Part shown: positions 23,836 through 57,207 of the stretch, in pieces
Layout: each line of letters opens with the position of its first letter
Position numbering within the stretch: the stretch's first letter is position 1
DNA from: Chloroflexota bacterium
GTDB taxonomy: Bacteria; Chloroflexota; Dehalococcoidia; JACPPY01
DNA length: 58,993 nt
NCBI GenBank assembly: GCA_016190755.1
Contig: JACPPY010000076.1
Location: 1-58,993, forward strand
Direction: 5' to 3'
Position numbers and translations under genes: made by a program
Notes under the pieces: generated by a model
Told to the model about the DNA's origin: nothing
The model's input: only the letters and a program-made list of their open reading frames with translations
Databases searched by the model: none

Positions 23836-24150
23836 GCGCATCCTCTGTGTGGCCCAAATACGCCCATTCTCCGGAGAAGCCAGTTTCAACGAAACTGTAC
23901 AGTCATATTAGCACAGCAGTCCGTTGTGCAAACACAGATTATTCGACCGGCCATTTTACGGAACTTCCTTTTATGTCAATCCCTGTCACAGCATCCATAT
24001 ACATAGCAAACAGACCTCTCAACCCATTCACACACACCAGGGAAACGAATCGATACAATCGTGTCGAGCAAAACTCTGTTGTTGTGCCGAGTGTGCCCGC
24101 CGATTCCTGAATGCAGGAAAAGTACCGTTGAAATCACACGGGAGATAGCT

Positions 24151-26289
24151 ATGAAAGCAAACATTGAAGAATTCGAACTGTCGCAGGAAACCTTAGCCAA
24201 CGCAACGAAAGAGTTAGAGGAGGCGAGAGAAAAGGCTCAAGCTGCTGAGAGAAAATTCCAAGTGGCAGTAGAGGCTCTGACAGTAGCGCAAAGGGAAGCT
24301 GAAGAGACAAGGCAGCAGGTAGAGCATGCTACCGACCAGAGCAAGCTGGCGGAAGAGGCCAAGAGGAAAGCCGAGCAGGAAGCCATAGAGGCCGAGGAAA
24401 CGGCGAAACAGCACTCTCACCAAGTCAAATCGGCCGAGGAAACTGAGGCTGAGGCCAGGGTACGGTTGGAGGAGGCCACAAAAAACAAGGAGATAGAATC
24501 CCAGCAGGCCAAGTTGGCAGTCGAAATCGAAGCCGAGAACACTAAGCTGTTTGAAGAGACAAAGAAGAACGTTGAGCAGTGTGCCGAACAGGTCAGGTCG
24601 GCGGAAGAAATTGCTGCGTTGGCCACGCAAGAGTTGGAAACGTGCAGGCAGGAGGCCGATAAAACTATCCAGGAAGCCAAGACCGCCGTGGAAGCCGCAG
24701 CTAACGCAACGAAGGGCTTGGACGAGGCCGGACAAATGGCAAAGAAAGTTGCACAGGATATCCAAATTGCTGAGGAAGACGAGGCCAGGGCAAAACACCA
24801 GGCTGAAGAGGCCAGAGGAAAAGCTATCCAAGCCGAAGAAGAAGCGGTAACCGCGGAAGAGGCGTTGAATAAGGTCAACCAGGATCTCATCGAGGCCCAG
24901 GAAATTGCTCAACAAGCAGCCAAGATGGCTGCTCTGGCGGTAGAAATGGAGGCCAAGTCCGACCAAAAGTTCACTGAGGCCAAAGAGCGCGCCAGGATGG
25001 CGGCTTTGGAAGCCAAGCAGGCCGAAGATGCTGTCGCTGTGGCGTTAAAAGAAGCGCAAGCGGCAAGAGACAAAGCTGAGGCGGCGGAGAACGACGTAAC
25101 GGCGCGAGAGGCGTCCAGGCCAGAGGCTGCGAAGGAGGCCGCAAAAGCCAAGCAAAGGGCCGCACGTACTGCAGAGAGATTGAAGATAGCAGAGGAAGCT
25201 GCGACTCGTGCGAGAGAGGCCGCCCAGGAAGCCCGGGGCAGGACAGTGGAACTGGAAGCGAGAGCCAAACAGGCTGACGAAGTCACGGCTGATACGGCCT
25301 CAAAGGTTGAAGAAGTAAGGGAAGAAGCTGCCAAGATACCTCAGGAGATCCAGGCTGCTGAGACACTGGCGTCCAAATTGGCTAAAGAAGCCGACACAGC
25401 TCAGCAAGAAGCTAAGCGAACCACAGAGAAACTGAAGGCTGCAGAGGAAGTAAGTTCCAGCATGCAGCAGGAGCTTCTCGGGCCCAAGCGTAAGTATGAT
25501 GTCGCGGCACAAGAGTTAAAAAGAATACAGGAAGTTCTGGCGAAAACGTCAATTGCATCCAGAGAGGCTAGACAGAAAGCTGAGCAGTCCACAGCGCAAT
25601 TTGTAGCTCAGGAAGACGCAGTGGCAAGGGCACGCCGAGAGGTCGCAGAGGCGCGAAAGCAGTTGGAGCAGGCTACTGCAAAGGTAACGTCAGCGCTGCA
25701 GGTGCGGTCTGAAACAGCTCGGAAGGCCACAGAGGCGCGTAAGCAATACGAGGAAGCCTCCAAACGAGCCGAGATAGCGGCTGAAGCTTTGACTAAAGCG
25801 AACCGAGAGGCAGTCGAGGCCAAAAACATTGCTGACGAAGCCACAAGCAAGGCTGAAGAGGCAGAAGACAATGAGGCCAAGGCAAGAAAAGAAGCCAAGA
25901 GAATGGCCAAGTTGAAAGCCAAGGAGGAGGCCAGAGAGGCTAAGGCGTTGCAAAAGAAGGAGGCGGAGGAGGAAAAGAGAAAAGAGGAGGAGAGAGCGGC
26001 CTTAACCAAACTTTACAGTGGGACAGTAAAGATCCTGTTGCCCTCGGGCGCCGATCATGAACAAGTAAAAGAACTCTCCGAGGCCCTCGGTAACGTAGAA
26101 GGGCTCAGGATGATCGGCACTGGTGGTTCGGACAACGGAGTCACAATGGTCGTATTCGCTGAGGCACCAGTCCGCTTGTTCAGCGAACTGGCATCTCTGG
26201 GCCCCATAGCGCAAGTCCATTTATCAAAGAAACATGGACCGAAGGCAATCGAGGTCACATTGGCAAAAAAACAAGGAATAGTCATGTGA
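24151..26289 (+). CDS. Long Ala/Glu/Lys-rich coiled-coil protein with a small C-terminal alpha/beta domain
   Basis: GGAG RBS before ATG 24151; 20 consecutive 28-aa repeats; no signal peptide or TM segment. Confidence 0.85.
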   Translation: MKANIEEFELSQETLANATKELEEAREKAQAAERKFQVAVEALTVAQREAEETRQQVEHATDQSKLAEEAKRKAEQEAIEAEETAKQHSHQVKSAEETEAEARVRLEEATKNKEIESQQAKLAVEIEAENTKLFEETKKNVEQCAEQVRSAEEIAALATQELETCRQEADKTIQEAKTAVEAAANATKGLDEAGQMAKKVAQDIQIAEEDEARAKHQAEEARGKAIQAEEEAVTAEEALNKVNQDLIEAQEIAQQAAKMAALAVEMEAKSDQKFTEAKERARMAALEAKQAEDAVAVALKEAQAARDKAEAAENDVTAREASRPEAAKEAAKAKQRAARTAERLKIAEEAATRAREAAQEARGRTVELEARAKQADEVTADTASKVEEVREEAAKIPQEIQAAETLASKLAKEADTAQQEAKRTTEKLKAAEEVSSSMQQELLGPKRKYDVAAQELKRIQEVLAKTSIASREARQKAEQSTAQFVAQEDAVARARREVAEARKQLEQATAKVTSALQVRSETARKATEARKQYEEASKRAEIAAEALTKANREAVEAKNIADEATSKAEEAEDNEAKARKEAKRMAKLKAKEEAREAKALQKKEAEEEKRKEEERAALTKLYSGTVKILLPSGADHEQVKELSEALGNVEGLRMIGTGGSDNGVTMVVFAEAPVRLFSELASLGPIAQVHLSKKHGPKAIEVTLAKKQGIVM
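24181..25860 (+). repeat. 20 tandem degenerate 84-bp (28-aa) coding repeats
   Basis: AEE/AVE-like starts recur every 28 aa without gaps, from SQETL (24181) to AEDNE (25861). Confidence 0.85.
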
Positions 26290-50173: not shown

Positions 50174-50962
50174 TCACGACGGTTGGTTCTGCGTGGTTGG
50201 TGAAGGTGGGTCGGAAAGAAGTTGGACAGACGGCGCCAGAAGGCGTTCCAGGGATTGCGAATCCAGTTGATTGAGTACCGCTTTGGCCCTTTTCTTGGCT
50301 GGCTCAAGCTCAGCAGGAAGGTCACGACAGTCTGCCAGGAACTTTCTGATATCCTTCGCCATGGCACGTCCCTTGTCCTCGGCATCGCATGCATCCACCG
50401 CCTTAAACCCCTGAAGTTTTCGCGGCCCCTGGCCGCAGCCCCGGCAAGACTCCCATATCATGAAGCTCGCACCACAGCCGGCGTTGAAAATCAGAAAACC
50501 CGGCGGTGTGGCAACAGGCGGCACACCATGAGACAGACACATCGCCGTTTCTTCATGTCCCAGGCCGTTGCAATCAACAGTAATGTGGCCCCCCGGAGGT
50601 ACCAGGCCACATAGCATTTCCAGCGCCTTCCAGGGCAGGCCGGGCGTGTACACATGGCGTACTTTGGGCTCAACCCCAAAGCAGAACCGGGACCTGAGGA
50701 CGCTGATATCGATCCAGTTGTAGCCCCGGTGCTCTCCCTGGCTGTGCAACGCAACAACTACCGGCTCACAGCTTACACGTGAGATGGCATCCAGCAGGAA
50801 GATCTCGAAATGCACGGCGCCGCTGCGGTCTTCCGGCCCCTGCAACACGAGCATCTCATAGCTGAAGCGCAGAGGCTTACGATGAAGGCCAGCTAACGGG
50901 TGCTTGCGGTCGGGTGGAGTCCAGCCTTTTTCCAATAGAGCGAGGTGATGGTTATTAGACAT
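50174..50962 (-). CDS. DUF1122-like protein
   Basis: YNWID, LVPPGGHI.V, ET...L..GVPPVATP.G and GPRKLQGFK resemble the DUF1122 family. Confidence 0.65.
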   Translation of the reverse strand: MSNNHHLALLEKGWTPPDRKHPLAGLHRKPLRFSYEMLVLQGPEDRSGAVHFEIFLLDAISRVSCEPVVVALHSQGEHRGYNWIDISVLRSRFCFGVEPKVRHVYTPGLPWKALEMLCGLVPPGGHITVDCNGLGHEETAMCLSHGVPPVATPPGFLIFNAGCGASFMIWESCRGCGQGPRKLQGFKAVDACDAEDKGRAMAKDIRKFLADCRDLPAELEPAKKRAKAVLNQLDSQSLERLLAPSVQLLSDPPSPTTQNQPS

Positions 50963-51022: not shown

Positions 51023-51157
51023 GGTGCACCATCACCCCTGTGTCCCACACCGCTTCCTCGAGGAAGCGGGGGGAGGAATTCTGTTCTGAAGGGGGCTGGC
51101 CTCCTTCGTACACGCTCCTGCTGGCGGGATCTGGAACAATGGGGTCTATGGTGCACC
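51023..51157. repeat. 135-bp palindromic REP/MITE-like element
   Basis: Terminal IR GGTGCACCAT..ACCCC / GGGGT..ATGGTGCACC; internal perfect 20-bp palindrome CCGCTTCCTCGAGGAAGCGG plus two more hairpins. Confidence 0.6.
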
Positions 51158-51211
51158 TGAGAAACAGGCCCTGATATCATGAGTTAGTAGGTTGCTCGGC
51201 GGAGGAGAGTC

Positions 51212-51892
51212 ATGGCTGCATTGATACTTGTTCTCGCCGTTGCCTTAGCACCGGGGTTGTTCTGGCTCTATATAGTGTATCGCAGAGACAAGTTCCATCC
51301 CGAGCCACGGGCGTTGGTAGCCGGGACATTCTTTCTGGGAATGGTTGTAGCCGTGCCTGTGGCCGCAGTTGAAGCTTTGCTTGAACCACACCCGGTCGGC
51401 ACCTCCGAACCGCTGAACCTTGAGACTGCGGCGTATGTCGCCTTCGTCGTCGCCGGCATCACTGAGGAGATCGGCAAGTTCGTGGTCGTAAGAGGAACGG
51501 TATATAGCTCCAGATATTTCGACGAGCCCATTGACGGGATCGTATACTCGTCCGCAGCAGCACTGGGTTTTGCCTCTCTGGAGAATGTCCTGTACGTATT
51601 GCGGTTTGGCATCGAGATAATGTTAATCAGAGGCCCTGTATCTTCCCTGGGCCATGCCGTGTTCTCCGCCTTCTGGGGCTATCCTCTCGCCTTGAGGAAA
51701 GTGCACAAACAGAGGACATCTTTCGGCACCATAGCGGGACTTCTTGCCGCCATCGTGGTACACGGACTGTTCGACTTCACCCTATTCGCTGGCGGGGATG
51801 TATCCCTGGCCTTCATACCCCTTTTCATCGCGGGCGCAGTCATCTTCTTTGCCATGATCGGCCACGCGCTCAAGGTCTCTCACTACGGATAG
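51212..51892 (+). CDS. prsW: PrsW-family intramembrane protease
   Basis: RDKFHPEP, TEEIGK, FDEPIDG, GFASLEN, GHAVF and VHGLFD; GGAGGAG RBS. Confidence 0.92.
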   Translation: MAALILVLAVALAPGLFWLYIVYRRDKFHPEPRALVAGTFFLGMVVAVPVAAVEALLEPHPVGTSEPLNLETAAYVAFVVAGITEEIGKFVVVRGTVYSSRYFDEPIDGIVYSSAAALGFASLENVLYVLRFGIEIMLIRGPVSSLGHAVFSAFWGYPLALRKVHKQRTSFGTIAGLLAAIVVHGLFDFTLFAGGDVSLAFIPLFIAGAVIFFAMIGHALKVSHYG

Positions 51893-52045
51893 CATGGAAG
51901 ACAGACAGCGATCTGAAGACGGAGATGGCCAACGAGGTCCAGTACACTCAGCCATAACCTCATGCCAGCAATCCGGCGGGACGTAAGGGAAAAGAAGGCG
52001 GCCAGCATTGACGCCATCGTTATGGGGTGAGAGGCCTACCTAACC

Positions 52046-52075
52046 CCTGACCTTTTGTCCTCTTTTTCGTTGTTA
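52046..52075 (+). promoter_or_regulatory. Possible ECF-sigma-type promoter of the thioester protein gene
   Basis: CCTGAC-N16 (T-rich)-CGTTGTTA; the -10 nearly matches the serpin's CGTTGTAA. Confidence 0.4.
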
Positions 52076-52124
52076 TTAGCAAAATTCTTCACCGGCGCAG
52101 CGATGTCGGACAGAAAGGAATACG

Positions 52125-55100
52125 ATGAGACGGCATTCTCTTATGTTAATCAGTACCATTCTCCTGGCGGCATTGCTCGCGCCGCTTATATCCGCCTGCA
52201 TACAGAAGGTCGAGGGCTCCGTGGACGGATACACGGCAGTGCTTCCAGCGGTGATCCAGTCGGGGAGCACTCAGAATATCTCCCTCTCGTTGTTCCGGGG
52301 CGACCAACTGGCGTCAGACACCGTCGAGTTGGCCTTGCTCAAGGGGCAAGATAAGGTTGCCGACTCGACGGCCCGCGTTGACGGCAAGGGGACTGTGAGG
52401 CTTGACGTACCGCCCCTGGAGGACGGCGAATACACAGTAAGGCTGAAGGGCAGCGGTTTCCAGGATGAGGCTAAGGTAAAGGTGGACAACTCCTACCTGG
52501 TATTCCTGGAGACGGACAAGCCCATTTATAAACCCGGCCAGACCGTGCATATGCGCGTCATCTCACTAAGTCCGGAACTCAAGCCGGTAAGCGAGAAGAT
52601 AAGCGTAGAGGTGATGGATGCCAAGGGAACGAAGGTCTTCCGCAAGGCGATTGATACGGACGACTACGGCACGGTTACGCTTGACCTGCCCGTGTCTGCT
52701 GAGCCTAACCTGGGAGTTTGGAAGATAGCTGCAGCCGGAGCGAAAGCGAAGACACAGCTGGACGTGCGTATAGAAGAGTACGTGCTGCCCAAGTACGAGG
52801 TGAAGGTCGACCTGCCCAAGGAATGGTTTCTGGTCAATGAGCCTATAACCGGCAAGATAAGCGCGGAGTATTCCTTCGGCAAGCAAGTGAACGGCGATCT
52901 GGAGATAAAGGCCTCGCGCTACGTCGGCCAGTGGCAGGACTACGCTACGTATACGGTGCCTATTGACGGCCAGTCAGAGTTCACCATTCCAGCCGCAGGC
53001 TACGTGGCTGCCGTGCCCGCCGCTGGAGGCCAGGGGAACATCATGCTGAATGTTTCTGTAATTGAGGAGGCGACGGGTTACAACGAAAAGACCAGCCGTA
53101 TGCTTACCGTAGCCCAATCTCCGACGAACTTGCAGGTAATCCCCTCAGGCTCCATGTTCAAGCCAGGCATACCTTTCTCTTTCTTGCTGGTGACGAAGAC
53201 GCCGGATGGTAGGCTGGTGGAAGCTAAAGCCAAGGTCCGCATATCTTACGTTTCCAAAGAGTTTAAAGAGATAGGGAGCGAAGATAAGACTACGGACACG
53301 ATCAAGGGGAAGGCGCTGCTCCAGGTGACACCCCCCGTCAATGCTGTAGCGATGTCGATAGAGGCATCGACCCCGGATGCACGCGCCTCAAAGACCGTTC
53401 AGGCAGGGTATTCTCCTTCCGGCAACTTCATACATGTGGAGCAGACAAGCGAAGGCACGGCCGCCTTGGGCCAGACAATAGCCTTCAAGGTGTACTCCAC
53501 GAAAGAAGCCTCTAACTTCTACTACGAGGTCATCTCTCGCGGCAAGGTTGTCTTCAGTGATTTCACTCGTGGTGACAGCATATCATTCAAAACGACACCA
53601 GCAATGGCGCCGACGTCCAAGCTGCTCGTGTACCAGATACTGCCTAATGCCGAGGTGGCGGCGGACTACATACCATTCAAGGTTGATGCACAGTACCCTC
53701 AAGCAGTAAAGGTTGACTTCAGCAAGCCAGAAGCCAGGCCCGGTGAGGACGTGACCATAAGCGTACAGACGGACGGCCAGGCAAAGGTCGGCCTGGCGGC
53801 TGTGGACAAATCGGTATTCATTCTGGCCGAGAACCGGCTTAACCTGCAGCAGGTGTTCGACGAGCTTGAGAAACTGTACATGAAGCCGCAGGTTGAGATA
53901 CACGAGGTCTCGCCACTCTACAGAGAGTCAGTGGCCATCAAGGGCTCCCGGGATGTGTTCAAGGATGCCGGCGCGGTCGTCATAAGCAACAAAAGCATAC
54001 CCGAGGGCGCAGAATACAAGAACAAAAACATGCCACGGCCCATGCCACTGGGCGGCGTGTGGAAAATGGCGGATCAGGCAGCCAGCGGTGCGCGCGGCGC
54101 AGTGCCTCCAGTTCCCGCGGCGGCCCCTGTCCCTGAGGCTTCCCACTCAGGGTTGGCCGAGGTAAAACGCGTACGGCAGTTCTTCCCCGAGACCTGGATA
54201 TGGCAAGAACTTACTACCGACGCCAGTGGCAAGGGAGCATTCAAGGTGAAAGTGCCTGACAGCATAACTACCTGGATGCTCCGTGCCGTTGCCCTGTCCA
54301 AGAGCAAAGGCCTGGGAATCGCGGAAAGCCAACTGAGGTCCTTCCAGCCCTTCTTCCTCAGCGTGGACCTGCCCTACTCAGCGATACGCGGCGAGGAGTT
54401 TCCTGCCAAGATCGCCATATACAACTACCTGGATACCTCGCAGAGTGTCACAGTCAAGCTGGATACGTCGCCCTGGTTTGACCTGCTGGATAAACCGGAG
54501 AAGACCGTGGACATCAAGGCCAACGATATCGGCGGCGTGCAATTCATGATAAGGCCGAAGAAATTGGGTGTGAACGACCTCAAAGTCACAGCTCAAAGTA
54601 AGCAAGACGCCGATGCCGTGATAAAGACTCTCATGGTCGAGTCTGAGGGCACGCCCAGAGAACTGGTCGACAACCTGATACTATCCGGTGGAGGCTCGAA
54701 GGCTGTTGATACGTCGGTCCCGCCCCAGGCGATAGACGACTCGGCGCGGGCTTACCTGACTTTGACCTCCTCGTACCTGGCGCAGACTATAGACGGGCTG
54801 GAAGGGTTGCTGCAAATGCCTTTCGGCTGCGGCGAGCAAAACATGATAGTCTTCGCCCCGGATGTCTTCATAACGAAGTACCTCAAGCAGTCTGGGCAGT
54901 TAAAGCCAGAGGTCATGGCCAAGGCGGAGAAACTGATGCTCACTGGCTATCAGAGAGAGCTAACCTACCGACGCAGCGACGGCTCGTTCTCGGCCTTCGG
55001 ACAACAGGATAAGGAAGGAAGCCTGTGGCTCACATCCTTCGTTCTTAAGAGTTTCGCCCAGGCCAGTGACCTGATCTTCATCGACGACAACGTGCTGGCG

Positions 55101-56294
55101 CAGGCACAGTCATGGATAAAGGCCCACCAGAACGCCGATGGCTCCTTCGATGCAGTTGGATTTGTCATACACAAGGAGATGATGGGCGGACTGCAGGGGA
55201 AGACAGCCATGAGTTCGTACGTGGCGATCGCCCTCATGCAGGCTGGAGAGAAGGTTTCTTCTGCCCGGGCTGTTTCCTACCTGGAGGGCAAACTGAGCGA
55301 TATCACCGACTCATACACCGCAGCTCTCGCGGCGTACGCGCTGGAGTTAGGTAATAGCCCGAAGGCCGCCGACGCTTATAACAAGCTGATGAAGATGGCC
55401 AAGGACGATGAGAACGGCCTGCATTGGGGTGGGGTGCAACCTGGTGAGCCAGGACCTATGCCGATGCCAAAGTTAGTACCCGGGATGCCAGGTGGGTACA
55501 TGCCGGCGCCCAGGACGTCGGACATAGAGGCGACTGGGTACGCCACACTGGCACTAGTTAAGCACGGAGACGCAGCCAACGCTGGCAAGGCCGCCCGATG
55601 GTTGGTCTCCAAAAGAAACGCGTACGGTGGCTTTGGCTCGACCCAGGATACTGTCGTTGGATTGGAGGCGCTTACCTCATACGCCACCGGCGTCAGAGCA
55701 GATGTCGACCTGATAGTCACGGTCGAAGCCGGCGGCAAGACCCAGGAGGTGAGGGTCCGATCTGACAATTTCGATGTCCTGCAGATAGTCGAGTTACCGG
55801 TCAACAGCCAGGTAAACATCAAAGTAGCTGGCAAGGGCGACGCGGTAGCCCAGGTGGTACGGCGCTTCAACCTGCCGGAGACGAAGAAGGCGGAAGAAGC
55901 CATGAAGGTGGATGTCAGCTACGATGTCACACGAGTGGCGGTGAACGATCTGGTGAAGGTTTCGGTGAAAGTAGCATTTAATCCGCCGTTCCCGGTAGAG
56001 GCTGGCATGACGGTCGTGGACATCTCGGTGCCCACCGGGTTCGCTCCGGTCAGCGATTCCATCGCGGCTGCCGTCAAAGCCCAGAAGAAACTACAGCGGT
56101 TCGACATCTCCGGCCGCAAGGTCATCTTATATATTGAGAACATGATGCCCGGCGACACGCTGGCATTCAGCTTCGATGTGAAGGCCATGTACCCGGTCAA
56201 GGCCAAGGGCACCTCGTCCAAGGCATACTCCTACTACAGGCTCGAACTGTCTGGTGAGACGATGGGACAGGACATGGTTGTAGTGGATAGATAG
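52125..56294 (+). CDS. Lipoprotein thioester-containing protein (alpha-2-macroglobulin/TEP/CD109 family)
   Basis: Lipobox ISAC; ETDKPIYKPGQ, EYVLPKYEV, AAVDKSV, FPETWIW, PDSITTW, GCGEQ thioester, DGSFSAFG, WLTSFV, GGFGSTQDT and a C-terminal receptor-binding-like domain. Confidence 0.95.
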   Translation: MRRHSLMLISTILLAALLAPLISACIQKVEGSVDGYTAVLPAVIQSGSTQNISLSLFRGDQLASDTVELALLKGQDKVADSTARVDGKGTVRLDVPPLEDGEYTVRLKGSGFQDEAKVKVDNSYLVFLETDKPIYKPGQTVHMRVISLSPELKPVSEKISVEVMDAKGTKVFRKAIDTDDYGTVTLDLPVSAEPNLGVWKIAAAGAKAKTQLDVRIEEYVLPKYEVKVDLPKEWFLVNEPITGKISAEYSFGKQVNGDLEIKASRYVGQWQDYATYTVPIDGQSEFTIPAAGYVAAVPAAGGQGNIMLNVSVIEEATGYNEKTSRMLTVAQSPTNLQVIPSGSMFKPGIPFSFLLVTKTPDGRLVEAKAKVRISYVSKEFKEIGSEDKTTDTIKGKALLQVTPPVNAVAMSIEASTPDARASKTVQAGYSPSGNFIHVEQTSEGTAALGQTIAFKVYSTKEASNFYYEVISRGKVVFSDFTRGDSISFKTTPAMAPTSKLLVYQILPNAEVAADYIPFKVDAQYPQAVKVDFSKPEARPGEDVTISVQTDGQAKVGLAAVDKSVFILAENRLNLQQVFDELEKLYMKPQVEIHEVSPLYRESVAIKGSRDVFKDAGAVVISNKSIPEGAEYKNKNMPRPMPLGGVWKMADQAASGARGAVPPVPAAAPVPEASHSGLAEVKRVRQFFPETWIWQELTTDASGKGAFKVKVPDSITTWMLRAVALSKSKGLGIAESQLRSFQPFFLSVDLPYSAIRGEEFPAKIAIYNYLDTSQSVTVKLDTSPWFDLLDKPEKTVDIKANDIGGVQFMIRPKKLGVNDLKVTAQSKQDADAVIKTLMVESEGTPRELVDNLILSGGGSKAVDTSVPPQAIDDSARAYLTLTSSYLAQTIDGLEGLLQMPFGCGEQNMIVFAPDVFITKYLKQSGQLKPEVMAKAEKLMLTGYQRELTYRRSDGSFSAFGQQDKEGSLWLTSFVLKSFAQASDLIFIDDNVLAQAQSWIKAHQNADGSFDAVGFVIHKEMMGGLQGKTAMSSYVAIALMQAGEKVSSARAVSYLEGKLSDITDSYTAALAAYALELGNSPKAADAYNKLMKMAKDDENGLHWGGVQPGEPGPMPMPKLVPGMPGGYMPAPRTSDIEATGYATLALVKHGDAANAGKAARWLVSKRNAYGGFGSTQDTVVGLEALTSYATGVRADVDLIVTVEAGGKTQEVRVRSDNFDVLQIVELPVNSQVNIKVAGKGDAVAQVVRRFNLPETKKAEEAMKVDVSYDVTRVAVNDLVKVSVKVAFNPPFPVEAGMTVVDISVPTGFAPVSDSIAAAVKAQKKLQRFDISGRKVILYIENMMPGDTLAFSFDVKAMYPVKAKGTSSKAYSYYRLELSGETMGQDMVVVDR

Positions 56295-56299
56295 CACGT

Positions 56300-56361
56300 T
56301 GCAACATGACGCACCCCGAACCTCCGGTCTGCTCCGGCATGGCTCGGGGTGTGTCATTGCA
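56300..56361 (+). terminator. Long stem-loop after the thioester protein gene
   Basis: ATGACGCACCCCGA/TCGGGGTGTGTCAT 14-bp stem with one G-U pair, and inner CCGG/CCGG. Confidence 0.55.
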
Positions 56362-56377
56362 GGGCCTCCGCCAGCCC

Positions 56378-56406
56378 TTGACACAAGAATGCCGCCGGAC
56401 TAGACT
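56378..56406 (+). promoter_or_regulatory. Sigma70 promoter of lexA
   Basis: TTGACA-N17-TAGACT. Confidence 0.85.
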
Positions 56407-56411
56407 TTGCG

Positions 56412-56427
56412 TAGAACATTAGTTCTA
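56412..56427 (+). promoter_or_regulatory. LexA operator (SOS box, GAAC-N4-GTTC type)
   Basis: Palindrome TAGAAC-ATTA-GTTCTA over the predicted +1 of lexA. Confidence 0.9.
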
Positions 56428-56444
56428 TGGAGGTCAAGCAGCGG

Positions 56445-57080
56445 ATGGTGGAGCTATCGCAAAAACGGCGCCAAATACTGAACTTTATTCGCGGCTTTGC
56501 CGAAGAACACGGCTATCCTCCCACCGTACGTGATATACAAAACGGATGTCACATTTCATCTACCTCCGTGGTCGACCATCACCTGCGCGTGCTGGAGCGC
56601 GACGGGCTTCTGCGGAGGGATGGCAAGACATCGCGCGGCTTGGAGTTAATCGGTGCTCCACCGCTGAAAAACACTATCCTCGTGCCCATGGCCGGCAACA
56701 TTGCGGCTGGCCAACCGATTCCTGTACCGCAGCCCGACGCCTGGGACACAGTCTCCGGCGGGGAGACCCTGGAACTGCCCGCAGAAATAATCCGCGGCCG
56801 CAAGAACGTATATGCGCTTCGCGTCAAGGGTCAATCCATGGTAGATGCCCTGATAAATGACGGTGACATCGTGCTCATGCAGCAGGTGCCCGCGGTCGAT
56901 GATGGAGATATGGCGGCCGTATGGCTGAAACAAGAGAAAGCAGTCACGCTGAAGAAACTTTACCGCGACAAGGACCGCCTGAGGCTGGAACCAGCAAACA
57001 CCCTCATGAAGCCAATCTACGTATCGCCTGAGAACACTGAGGTACAGGGCAAAGTAGTGGCGGTGATCAGGACATACTAG
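56445..57080 (+). CDS. lexA: LexA repressor
   Basis: GYPPTVRDI, STSVV, IAAGQP cleavage site, VKGQSM catalytic Ser and TLKK catalytic Lys; GGAGG RBS favours ATG 56445. Confidence 0.97.
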   Translation: MVELSQKRRQILNFIRGFAEEHGYPPTVRDIQNGCHISSTSVVDHHLRVLERDGLLRRDGKTSRGLELIGAPPLKNTILVPMAGNIAAGQPIPVPQPDAWDTVSGGETLELPAEIIRGRKNVYALRVKGQSMVDALINDGDIVLMQQVPAVDDGDMAAVWLKQEKAVTLKKLYRDKDRLRLEPANTLMKPIYVSPENTEVQGKVVAVIRTY

Positions 57081-57207
57081 AAGATCGATCTACTGTGAAG
57101 CCGGGCATACTGCCATTGTCGGCCTGTTCTGACTGCGGCATGGTGACGATCGGCAATCAGGAGTGTACAATGCACGGTGATAGCGACGATCATGTTGGAG
57201 TACTACT

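Follow-up and report, generated by a model that had tools for sequence, protein, structure and literature searches.

A short, animal-like thioester alpha-macroglobulin lipoprotein of Dehalococcoidia, probably a membrane-tethered protease trap

What is the function of a bacterial lipoprotein that is built like the thioester-containing proteins (TEPs) of animals? The question is raised by a gene at positions 52125-56294 of the forward (+) strand of contig JACPPY010000076.1, from a Chloroflexota genome of the class Dehalococcoidia (assembly GCA_016190755.1); the whole stretch of 58,993 nucleotides is called the window below. A first-pass annotation described the gene product as an animal-type thioester lipoprotein, distinct from a standard bacterial alpha-2-macroglobulin (A2M), and suggested from the position of one histidine that it tags surfaces like an opsonin instead of trapping proteases. 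The analysis presented here bears out the first of these claims and speaks against the second. By its domain set and its CGEQ motif the protein is a member of the alpha-macroglobulin/thioester-containing superfamily, and it is probably a lipid-anchored, monomer-type protease trap that depends on conjugation and acts at the outer face of the cytoplasmic membrane.

The reading frame is open throughout and encodes 1389 residues, all features given below being on the + strand; the database gene call for the same protein (100% identical) starts at Met7, which gives 1383 residues and leaves the lipobox unchanged. The N-terminus, MRRHSLMLISTILLAALLAPLISAC, forms a signal peptide (52125-52199) with the lipobox L-I-S-A-C, of which Cys25 is the predicted lipidation site. 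A lipobox-like motif is found in 110 members of a family set of 120 proteins, the best of 1327 matches (E ≤ 0.001) among 8000 scored candidates in a word-indexed protein search. Lipoprotein maturation is available to the cell, because its genome encodes both Lgt (two matches) and LspA (one match). The protein C-terminus, ...GQDMVVVDR, has no hydrophobic tail, so that the anchor is N-terminal and no C-terminal glycosylphosphatidylinositol (GPI) signal is present. Only two cysteines occur in the protein, Cys25 of the lipobox and Cys902 of the thioester motif.

Seven Pfam domains are matched above the cut-offs, which, with an E value of 2e-86 for TED_complement and six further domains, excludes chance as their source and that of the motifs. 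The macroglobulin (MG) domains MG2, MG3, MG4 and A2M_BRD (MG5/MG6) cover residues 126-567 (52500-53825), preceded by only ~100 residues, equal to one MG domain. They are followed by the putative bait region and then by the A2M (MG7) domain with the motif RVRQFFPETWIW (FFPETWIW), together residues 681-779 (54165-54461). The thioester domain (TED, residues 883-1186; 54771-55682) is helical in the predicted model and contains the GCGEQ motif at residues 901-905 (54825-54839), in which a thioester bond between Cys902 and Gln905 is predicted. His1016 (55170-55172), in the sequence FVIHKEMMGG, lies 114 residues after Cys902, and the GGFGSTQDT motif is also present, all as first annotated. The A2M_recep (MG8/RBD) domain spans residues 1292-1375 (55998-56249). 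It does include the AYSYY sequence (residues 1367-1371) that had been described as the end of the C-terminal domain, but this sequence stops 18 residues short of the C-terminus.

A sequence search of the Protein Data Bank (PDB) places the protein among the animal members of the superfamily. The best matches, at E values around 1e-144, are human CD109 (8.8e-144) and human A2M (2.6e-143), followed by A2ML1 (2.7e-131) and then by C4, TEP1 and C3; identity to CD109-like proteins is 33-36%. No bacterial A2M is present in the best 60 of the 75 PDB matches, in all 51 matches obtained with the TED only, or in the best 50 rows of a Foldseek search. In contrast, a BLASTP comparison with E. coli YfhM gives only 38 bits, limited to MG domains, in which residues 22-258 of the query match residues 292-521 of YfhM; YfhM therefore carries ~270 extra residues at its N-terminus. 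The properties of YfhM given in the first-pass annotation were confirmed in E. coli K-12, where yfhM encodes 1653 residues with a GCLEQ motif and a LAGC lipobox and abuts pbpC. The two proteins share the N-terminal lipoprotein anchor, a thioester motif and the superfamily, and YfhM (ECAM) is described in the accessible text of a 2026 review as a monomeric 'snap-trap' inhibitor (PMC12939704). However, the 1389-residue query has GCGEQ and an A2M_recep/MG8 domain, lacks the MG0/NIE extension and any bacterial-specific MG family in the Pfam scan, has no adjoining PBP1C gene, and does not cluster with the canonical forms. It is thus not a canonical YfhM-type bacterial A2M. The canonical long forms of its own phylum are likewise only 24-31% identical to it, over part of the length. 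Among the long macroglobulin-like frames of the phylum, three of 2044-2196 residues (L118, L119 and L120) are without any CxEQ motif; these may be of the thioester-less YfaS/MagD kind.

Structural comparison leads to the same placement. Residues 676-1389 were modelled with AlphaFold2 (mean pLDDT 83.0, pTM 0.73). The pLDDT falls below 50 at model residues 429-453, in a second variable loop inside the TED (residues ~1101-1130; 55425-55514) that is rich in Pro, Met and Gly and has mean gaps in 57 of the 120 rows of the family alignment. In the Foldseek search the best match is CD109 (E 7.6e-60, TMq 0.79, 32% identity), and the native forms of A2ML1 and monomeric A2M both reach a TMq of 0.80. The superposition on TEP1 and C3 proposed in the first-pass annotation is possible, with TMq values of 0.72-0.74 and 0.69-0.71 (native C3), respectively, but the model is closer to CD109, A2ML1 and A2M than to either. 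Activated forms superpose poorly (C3b ~0.35, induced A2M 0.45, active CD109 0.39). Because native structures superpose well and activated ones do not, the predicted conformation is the native one, with the TED packed against MG8.

Human CD109 (PDB entries 8s3o, native, and 9fx3, active) is the closest known counterpart in several respects. It has ~1400-1450 residues, GCGEQ and a histidine in the same alignment column. In the accessible text of PMC12927315, CD109 is a monomeric, membrane-bound protease inhibitor with a lipid tether, and monomeric forms are said to need conjugation in order to inhibit; the query's tether is predicted, and the same trapping mode would apply to it. Unlike the query with its N-terminal lipobox, CD109 has a C-terminal GPI anchor, is processed by furin and is released upon activation (PMC12927315). 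CD109 also has a disulfide network where the query has two cysteines, and the query falls outside the CD109/iTEP clan. Human A2ML1 (PDB entry 7q1y) shares the high structural similarity, as well as the histidine discussed below, and is a monomeric inhibitor according to the accessible text of PMC7864068; a monomer is presumed for the query too. A2ML1, however, is secreted without a membrane anchor, is metazoan, and belongs to an A2M/PZP clan from which the query is excluded.

The histidine was the basis of the proposed tagging function. In the HMMER alignment of the TEDs, GFVIHKEMMGG of the query is aligned with GRVIHSELQGG of CD109, GNLLHTAMKGG of A2ML1 and GSLLNNAIKGG of A2M. By counting positions in this alignment, His1016 corresponds to position 1066 of the A2ML1 chain (His-1084 of the precursor) and to Asn-1088 of A2M; these are the residues, in one column, that Harwood et al. 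mutated (PMC7864068). The claim that His1016 occupies the position that governs hydroxyl reactivity thus holds by alignment for A2ML1, with Asn in A2M, while the equivalence to C3 and C4B is taken from the accessible text of PMC7864068. According to that source, His-1084 confers hydroxyl reactivity on A2ML1 (as judged from H1084N) and is needed for conjugating and inhibiting amine-free thermolysin, and the same conserved histidine is used by C3 and C4B to reach surface glycans.

How widespread the residue is was determined from 141 rows with a thioester motif in an alignment of TEDs, made from a representative set at 50% identity together with YfhM. Histidine is the commonest residue at the column (100 of the 141 rows), Asn, Asp and Ser being minority states. 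It is found in 29 of 34 GCGEQ rows with few cysteines, in 52 of 76 GCGEQ rows with many cysteines (metazoan-type), and in 13 of 20 low-cysteine rows with GCFEQ. Histidine is therefore the common state, and probably the ancestral one. Judged from this alignment, it does not tell opsonins and inhibitors apart and marks no special function. Since the inhibitors A2ML1 and CD109 carry the histidine and it is the majority state, an opsonin-like role does not follow from it. Within the family set His1016 is invariant (120 of 120), as is GCGEQNM (120 of 120). A second histidine directly precedes it in 92 of the 120 members (HH), whereas the protein of the window has Ile-His, with Ile at position 1015.

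Conservation elsewhere in the protein is consistent with a protease trap. The stretch ahead of RVRQFFPETWIW that the first-pass annotation had noted as bait-like (residues ~621-680; 53985-54164) is rich in Ala, Pro and Gly, with Met, and is hypervariable in length and sequence in the family. No other part of the protein reaches its entropy or its share of gaps in the alignment of 120 rows, with mean gaps in 20-57 rows and an entropy of up to 2.13 bits, versus 0.2-0.9 bits in the flanks. The most variable and indel-rich part of the family alignment thus lies where a decoy substrate is expected, and variability of this kind is the pattern described for alpha-macroglobulin baits in PMC7864068. 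The region is poorly conserved, as are the baits of protease-inhibitor macroglobulins, which lie exposed between the two halves of MG6. In contrast to the bait, the RVRQFFPETWIW motif has its R, F, P, E, T, W and W invariant in all 38 rows of an alignment that includes metazoan rows, and two MG8 tyrosines, located in AYSYY (alignment positions Y695 and Y696), are invariant over prokaryotic and metazoan rows. The thioester, FPETW and GGF.STQDT motifs do not vary even when metazoan rows are included.

A mechanism can be proposed in which the protein is held in the native state, with the thioester shielded, by an N-terminal lipid tether on the outer face of the cytoplasmic membrane. A foreign protease would cut the exposed, hypervariable bait (~621-680), and this cleavage would induce a conformational change by which the Cys902-Gln905 thioester becomes exposed. 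His1016 would then attack the thioester to form an acyl-imidazole, which could react with lysine amines or hydroxyl side chains of the nearby protease. The protease would end up covalently captured, sterically hindered and immobilised at the cell surface. Such a mechanism is known for the monomeric inhibitors A2ML1 (PMC7864068) and CD109 (PMC12927315), both of which need conjugation. The physiological role would be that of a shield for exposed membrane and S-layer proteins, and not wall repair together with PBP1C, since the host apparently has no peptidoglycan synthases.

The latter statement rests on the genome of the window (2.09 Mb in 98 contigs, 81% complete). The whole of this 81%-complete genome yielded neither a Transgly (PF00912) nor a Transpeptidase (PF00905) domain, and only one domain of the Mur-ligase type. 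This suggests, as far as a genome of 81% completeness allows, a cell without peptidoglycan, of the Dehalococcoidia type. The lack of a PBP1C partner therefore appears to be a trait of the lineage and not an oddity of the locus. Instead of PBP1C the gene has as neighbours a PrsW-family intramembrane metalloprotease upstream (51212-51892, +), on the same strand at a distance of 232 bp, and LexA downstream (56427-57080), followed by a class II aldolase and an aminotransferase. Around the locus are also genes for chorismate synthase, shikimate kinase/DHQ synthase, an H+-pyrophosphatase and a DUF1122 protein, the last of these (262 residues; 50174-50962, -) between the H+-pyrophosphatase and PrsW genes. 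FtsH, LepA, RecD2 and AlaRS are encoded at a greater distance in the 59-kb contig. Most of the stretch is contained in two DNA sequencing runs labelled groundwater metagenome, which may come from the source sample; no RNA run was listed for it.

None of these associations is conserved. For none of ten neighbours from the window was a tblastn match (E ≤ 1e-5) obtained within ~7 kb of the macroglobulin gene in 15 other genomes; this includes PrsW, so that the PrsW-macroglobulin pairing is not a conserved one. An all-against-all clustering of 203 open reading frames from 16 loci yields the macroglobulin as the only family present in 16 of 16, the next clusters reaching four and three loci. The minor neighbour clusters that were scanned comprise response regulators, a glycosyl hydrolase, a CSD protein and a PAC2 protein. 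Across the 16 loci no conserved partner gene was found (no neighbour family in more than 4 of 16), nor a conserved neighbour resembling a convertase or a receptor, although partners may be encoded elsewhere. A scan of 51100-57200 gave six promoter-like sites versus 2.9 expected, none of them within the 232 bp between the PrsW and macroglobulin genes, and no terminator-like site on the + strand.

Several considerations weigh against the protease trap. The histidine is equally compatible with the tagging of targets other than proteases. No target protease can be identified from the gene context, and the upstream PrsW-family gene is not a conserved neighbour. The monomeric state is presumed from the comparison with known inhibitors. 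The native-like conformation of the model may in part stem from the training of AlphaFold on solved relatives. Finally, no paper, and no biochemistry, was found on any member of this prokaryotic clade. The monomeric state, the trapping of proteases and the physiological role are therefore put forward here as what the comparison with A2ML1 and CD109 would imply.

One alternative is the opsonin- or complement-like factor, in which the histidine-activated thioester would tag hydroxyl-rich foreign surfaces, of cells or viruses, after a protease trigger. It draws on the presence and invariance of the histidine, on its use by C3 and C4B on surface glycans (PMC7864068), and on the accessible text of Makarova et al. 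(PMC8416519), in which complement-like roles of the alpha-macroglobulin homologues of archaea are put forward as a speculation. We consider it very improbable nonetheless. Apart from the occurrence of the same histidine in protease inhibitors (A2ML1, PMC7864068; CD109, PMC12927315) and in most of the superfamily rows, the ANATO and C345C/NTR domains of complement C3 and C4 are not matched by the query, neither ANATO nor C345C being detected in the Pfam scan at E ≤ 0.01. Nor does any of the 16 loci offer a conserved neighbour fit to be a convertase, receptor or effector. In addition, the N-terminal tether holds the protein to the membrane of its own cell, so that a tag would bind the target to the producer, and there is no known downstream reader of such a tag. 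The archaeal homologues discussed by Makarova et al. resemble the query family in bearing a TED, CxEQ and signal peptides and in occurring outside the Gram-negatives. They differ, as described there, in being haloarchaeal and methanogen proteins of varied architecture with conflict-type neighbourhoods (PMC8416519), whereas the query family keeps to one architecture and lacks a conserved neighbourhood.

A role as a covalent adhesin or matrix anchor, in which the thioester, once triggered by proteolysis, would fasten the cell, its S-layer or a matrix to substrates or to partner cells, must be rated as very improbable. Both the surface tether and a hydroxyl-reactive thioester are predicted for the protein, and the unrelated thioester-domain adhesins of Gram-positive bacteria do adhere covalently through thioesters. 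However, the whole bait/MG/CUB/TED/MG8 apparatus of a protease trap has been kept, the bait is hypervariable in the way of protease baits, and no adhesion-type domain is found in the Pfam scan of the protein. The conjugation-dependent protease trap thus remains the preferred function.

To place the protein within the superfamily, representatives were taken from an exhaustive search that gave 12,902 proteins at E ≤ 0.001. Identity among the representatives forms a continuum from 55% to ~30%. The cysteine count splits them into two kinds, with two cysteines in the query and 9-42 in the named metazoan representatives. Name look-ups agree with this for nine of ten high-cysteine representatives (CD109-like proteins of a mollusc, a myriapod and a skate, a lamprey protein, an amphioxus A2M/PZP and a fish A2ML1). 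The named low-cysteine clusters, two of the first ten tried, which are a mixture of low- and high-cysteine rows, are archaeal (Undinarchaeales/Methanopyri), which belongs to the wider clan of the query, and acidobacterial. Trees were made of 130 rows with FastTree and of 50 rows with IQ-TREE (LG+G4, 1204 columns, with ultrafast bootstrap and SH-aLRT support), and the two agree. In the IQ-TREE tree all 17 metazoan rows fall into a single clan (100/99) without the query, and within it the CD109/iTEP clan of nine rows (100/99) and the A2M/PZP clan (99/98) are each intact, with the query outside both. The query lies in a prokaryote-type clan of 25 rows (100/99). Four high-cysteine rows (P0182, P0185, P0240 and P0263) are located at the base of the metazoan clan. 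By this clan placement the protein is neither of the YfhM type nor recently copied from an animal CD109 or A2M.

The idea that the gene was recently transferred from an animal (CD109- or iTEP-like), or is a eukaryotic contaminant of the bin, could appeal to human CD109 as the best PDB match, to the automatic JGI name 'CD109 antigen' and to the hypothesis of metazoan-to-bacterium transfer for bacterial A2Ms (Budd 2004, as cited in PMC13069473), but is already contradicted and can practically be dismissed, since the gene stands among bacterial housekeeping genes on a 59-kb contig (FtsH, AlaRS, LepA, RecD2, LexA and the shikimate pathway), has a GC content of 0.55-0.575 within the 0.53-0.59 of the window, encodes two cysteines in place of the metazoan 9-42, has homologues in five single-contig Chloroflexota genomes (G069, G276, G143, G214 and G238; the first two belong to the same class and their copies are 55% identical), and is excluded from a metazoan clan in which the CD109 and A2M clans are intact.

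The reverse direction, from prokaryotes to animals, was addressed by rooting. E. coli YfhM was tried as the only outgroup, but in the FastTree tree it was united with a long metazoan row; this was flagged as a long-branch join and the root was not used. YfhM and four canonical long forms from the query's own phylum were used together as outgroup, in an alignment that runs from MG6b to the C-terminus (664 columns). These five canonical forms make up a clan of their own (100) with a long branch, and the query does not cluster with them, in agreement with the phylogenetic expectation of the first-pass annotation. In trees under both LG+C20+F+G4 with PMSF and LG+G4 the root falls among prokaryotic lineages, next to a clade with GCFEQ, and the metazoan clan is nested inside the prokaryotic GCGEQ diversity. 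In all five outgroup-rooted runs the root was placed among prokaryotic lineages and the metazoan clan was nested, the root never being on or inside that clan. The query's Chloroflexota clade joins the metazoa in a 32-row clade with a support of 99 (SH-aLRT) in two full-ingroup runs with YfhM, and in a run without YfhM the clade of query family and metazoa has a support of 100. When the GCFEQ clade is omitted (two runs), the query family groups with an Acidobacteriota/archaeal clade that is sister to the metazoan clan (support 78 and 52).

The position of the root is unstable, because without the GCFEQ clade the outgroup shifts to other long prokaryotic branches (support 18-59). Moreover, an approximately unbiased (AU) test under LG+G4 did not reject a tree in which all 29 prokaryote-type rows are held together (delta lnL 25.7, p 0.086); the group tested was chosen after the tree had been seen, and the outgroup branch is long. 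The nesting of the animal thioester proteins in prokaryotic diversity, which the trees suggest, is therefore not significant, not secure and unproven. It is a tentative possibility that the short macroglobulins of free-living Dehalococcoidia, with GCGEQ and His and without MG0/NIE, are together with Acidobacteriota and DPANN-archaeal forms the closest prokaryotic relatives of the animal thioester/complement superfamily, and that animal TEPs descend from such a prokaryotic gene.

The GCFEQ clade itself is a separate, large prokaryotic group of macroglobulins of 1530-1800 residues, with N-terminal extensions and distinct from YfhM. Its members include the representatives P0184, P0191, P0198 and P0200 and ~25 more, and the histidine is mostly kept in them, as given above for the low-cysteine rows.

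The family to which the query belongs is abundant. Apart from the self-match, the best 120 of the 1327 homologues are 57-65% identical to the query and have 1367-1414 residues with the same Pfam set. Where named, homologues are called "alpha-2-macroglobulin [Chloroflexi/Dehalococcoidia]" by NCBI or "CD109 antigen" by JGI. The taxon names attached to the nearest homologues (Chloroflexi, Dehalococcoidia, Dehalococcoidales) point to the same taxon for the genome of the window. A motif-seeded scan of species-representative genomes gave at least 599 stretches, at least 538 of which are confirmed relatives. The best 80 of these confirmed stretches are labelled Dehalococcoidia/Chloroflexota (78), Acidobacteriota (1) and Sphingomonadaceae (1), and among the best matches listed the homologues are mostly in metagenome-assembled genomes of Dehalococcoidia. 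Of 401 genomes sampled evenly over the phylum, 36 match at E ≤ 1e-20. The short form is present in 25 of the 36 by manual count, which includes the genome of the window and one fragment; in the other 11 the matches are weak (24-31% identity) and fall on long frames (1822-2239 residues), plus one contig-end frame of 1041 residues, and these are of the canonical kind. The distribution in the phylum is thus patchy. The family is uncharacterised, yet abundant and already annotated automatically, and the gene is not singular.

In the accessible text of the 2026 review cited above, A2Ms are attributed to metazoans and Gram-negative bacteria, the bacterial forms having additional MG0/NIE domains (PMC12939704). 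A second review of the same year calls the acquisition of A2M from metazoan hosts a "non-definitive hypothesis" in its accessible text (PMC13069473). The gene described here represents a third, uncharacterised prokaryotic form, with an animal-like architecture and no link to PBP1C, which is abundant in free-living, apparently wall-less Dehalococcoidia. Its main value is that of a tractable His-type monomeric macroglobulin and of evidence on the origin of the animal thioester proteins. With its few cysteines (2-5) the family may provide a simple, disulfide-free model of such a macroglobulin that can be expressed in bacteria, and it supplies data on the origin of animal thioester immunity. A prokaryotic origin of animal TEPs, if true, would reverse the still-quoted idea that bacteria took up A2M from metazoan hosts.

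One further open reading frame of the window (24061-26289, +) stands out, apart from the macroglobulin locus. It encodes 742 residues without a Pfam match, rich in Ala, Glu, Lys and Gln and of coiled-coil appearance, and gives rise to a strong local AT skew (0.47) and a GC skew of 0.19; at its end it has a short, non-repetitive C-terminal domain.

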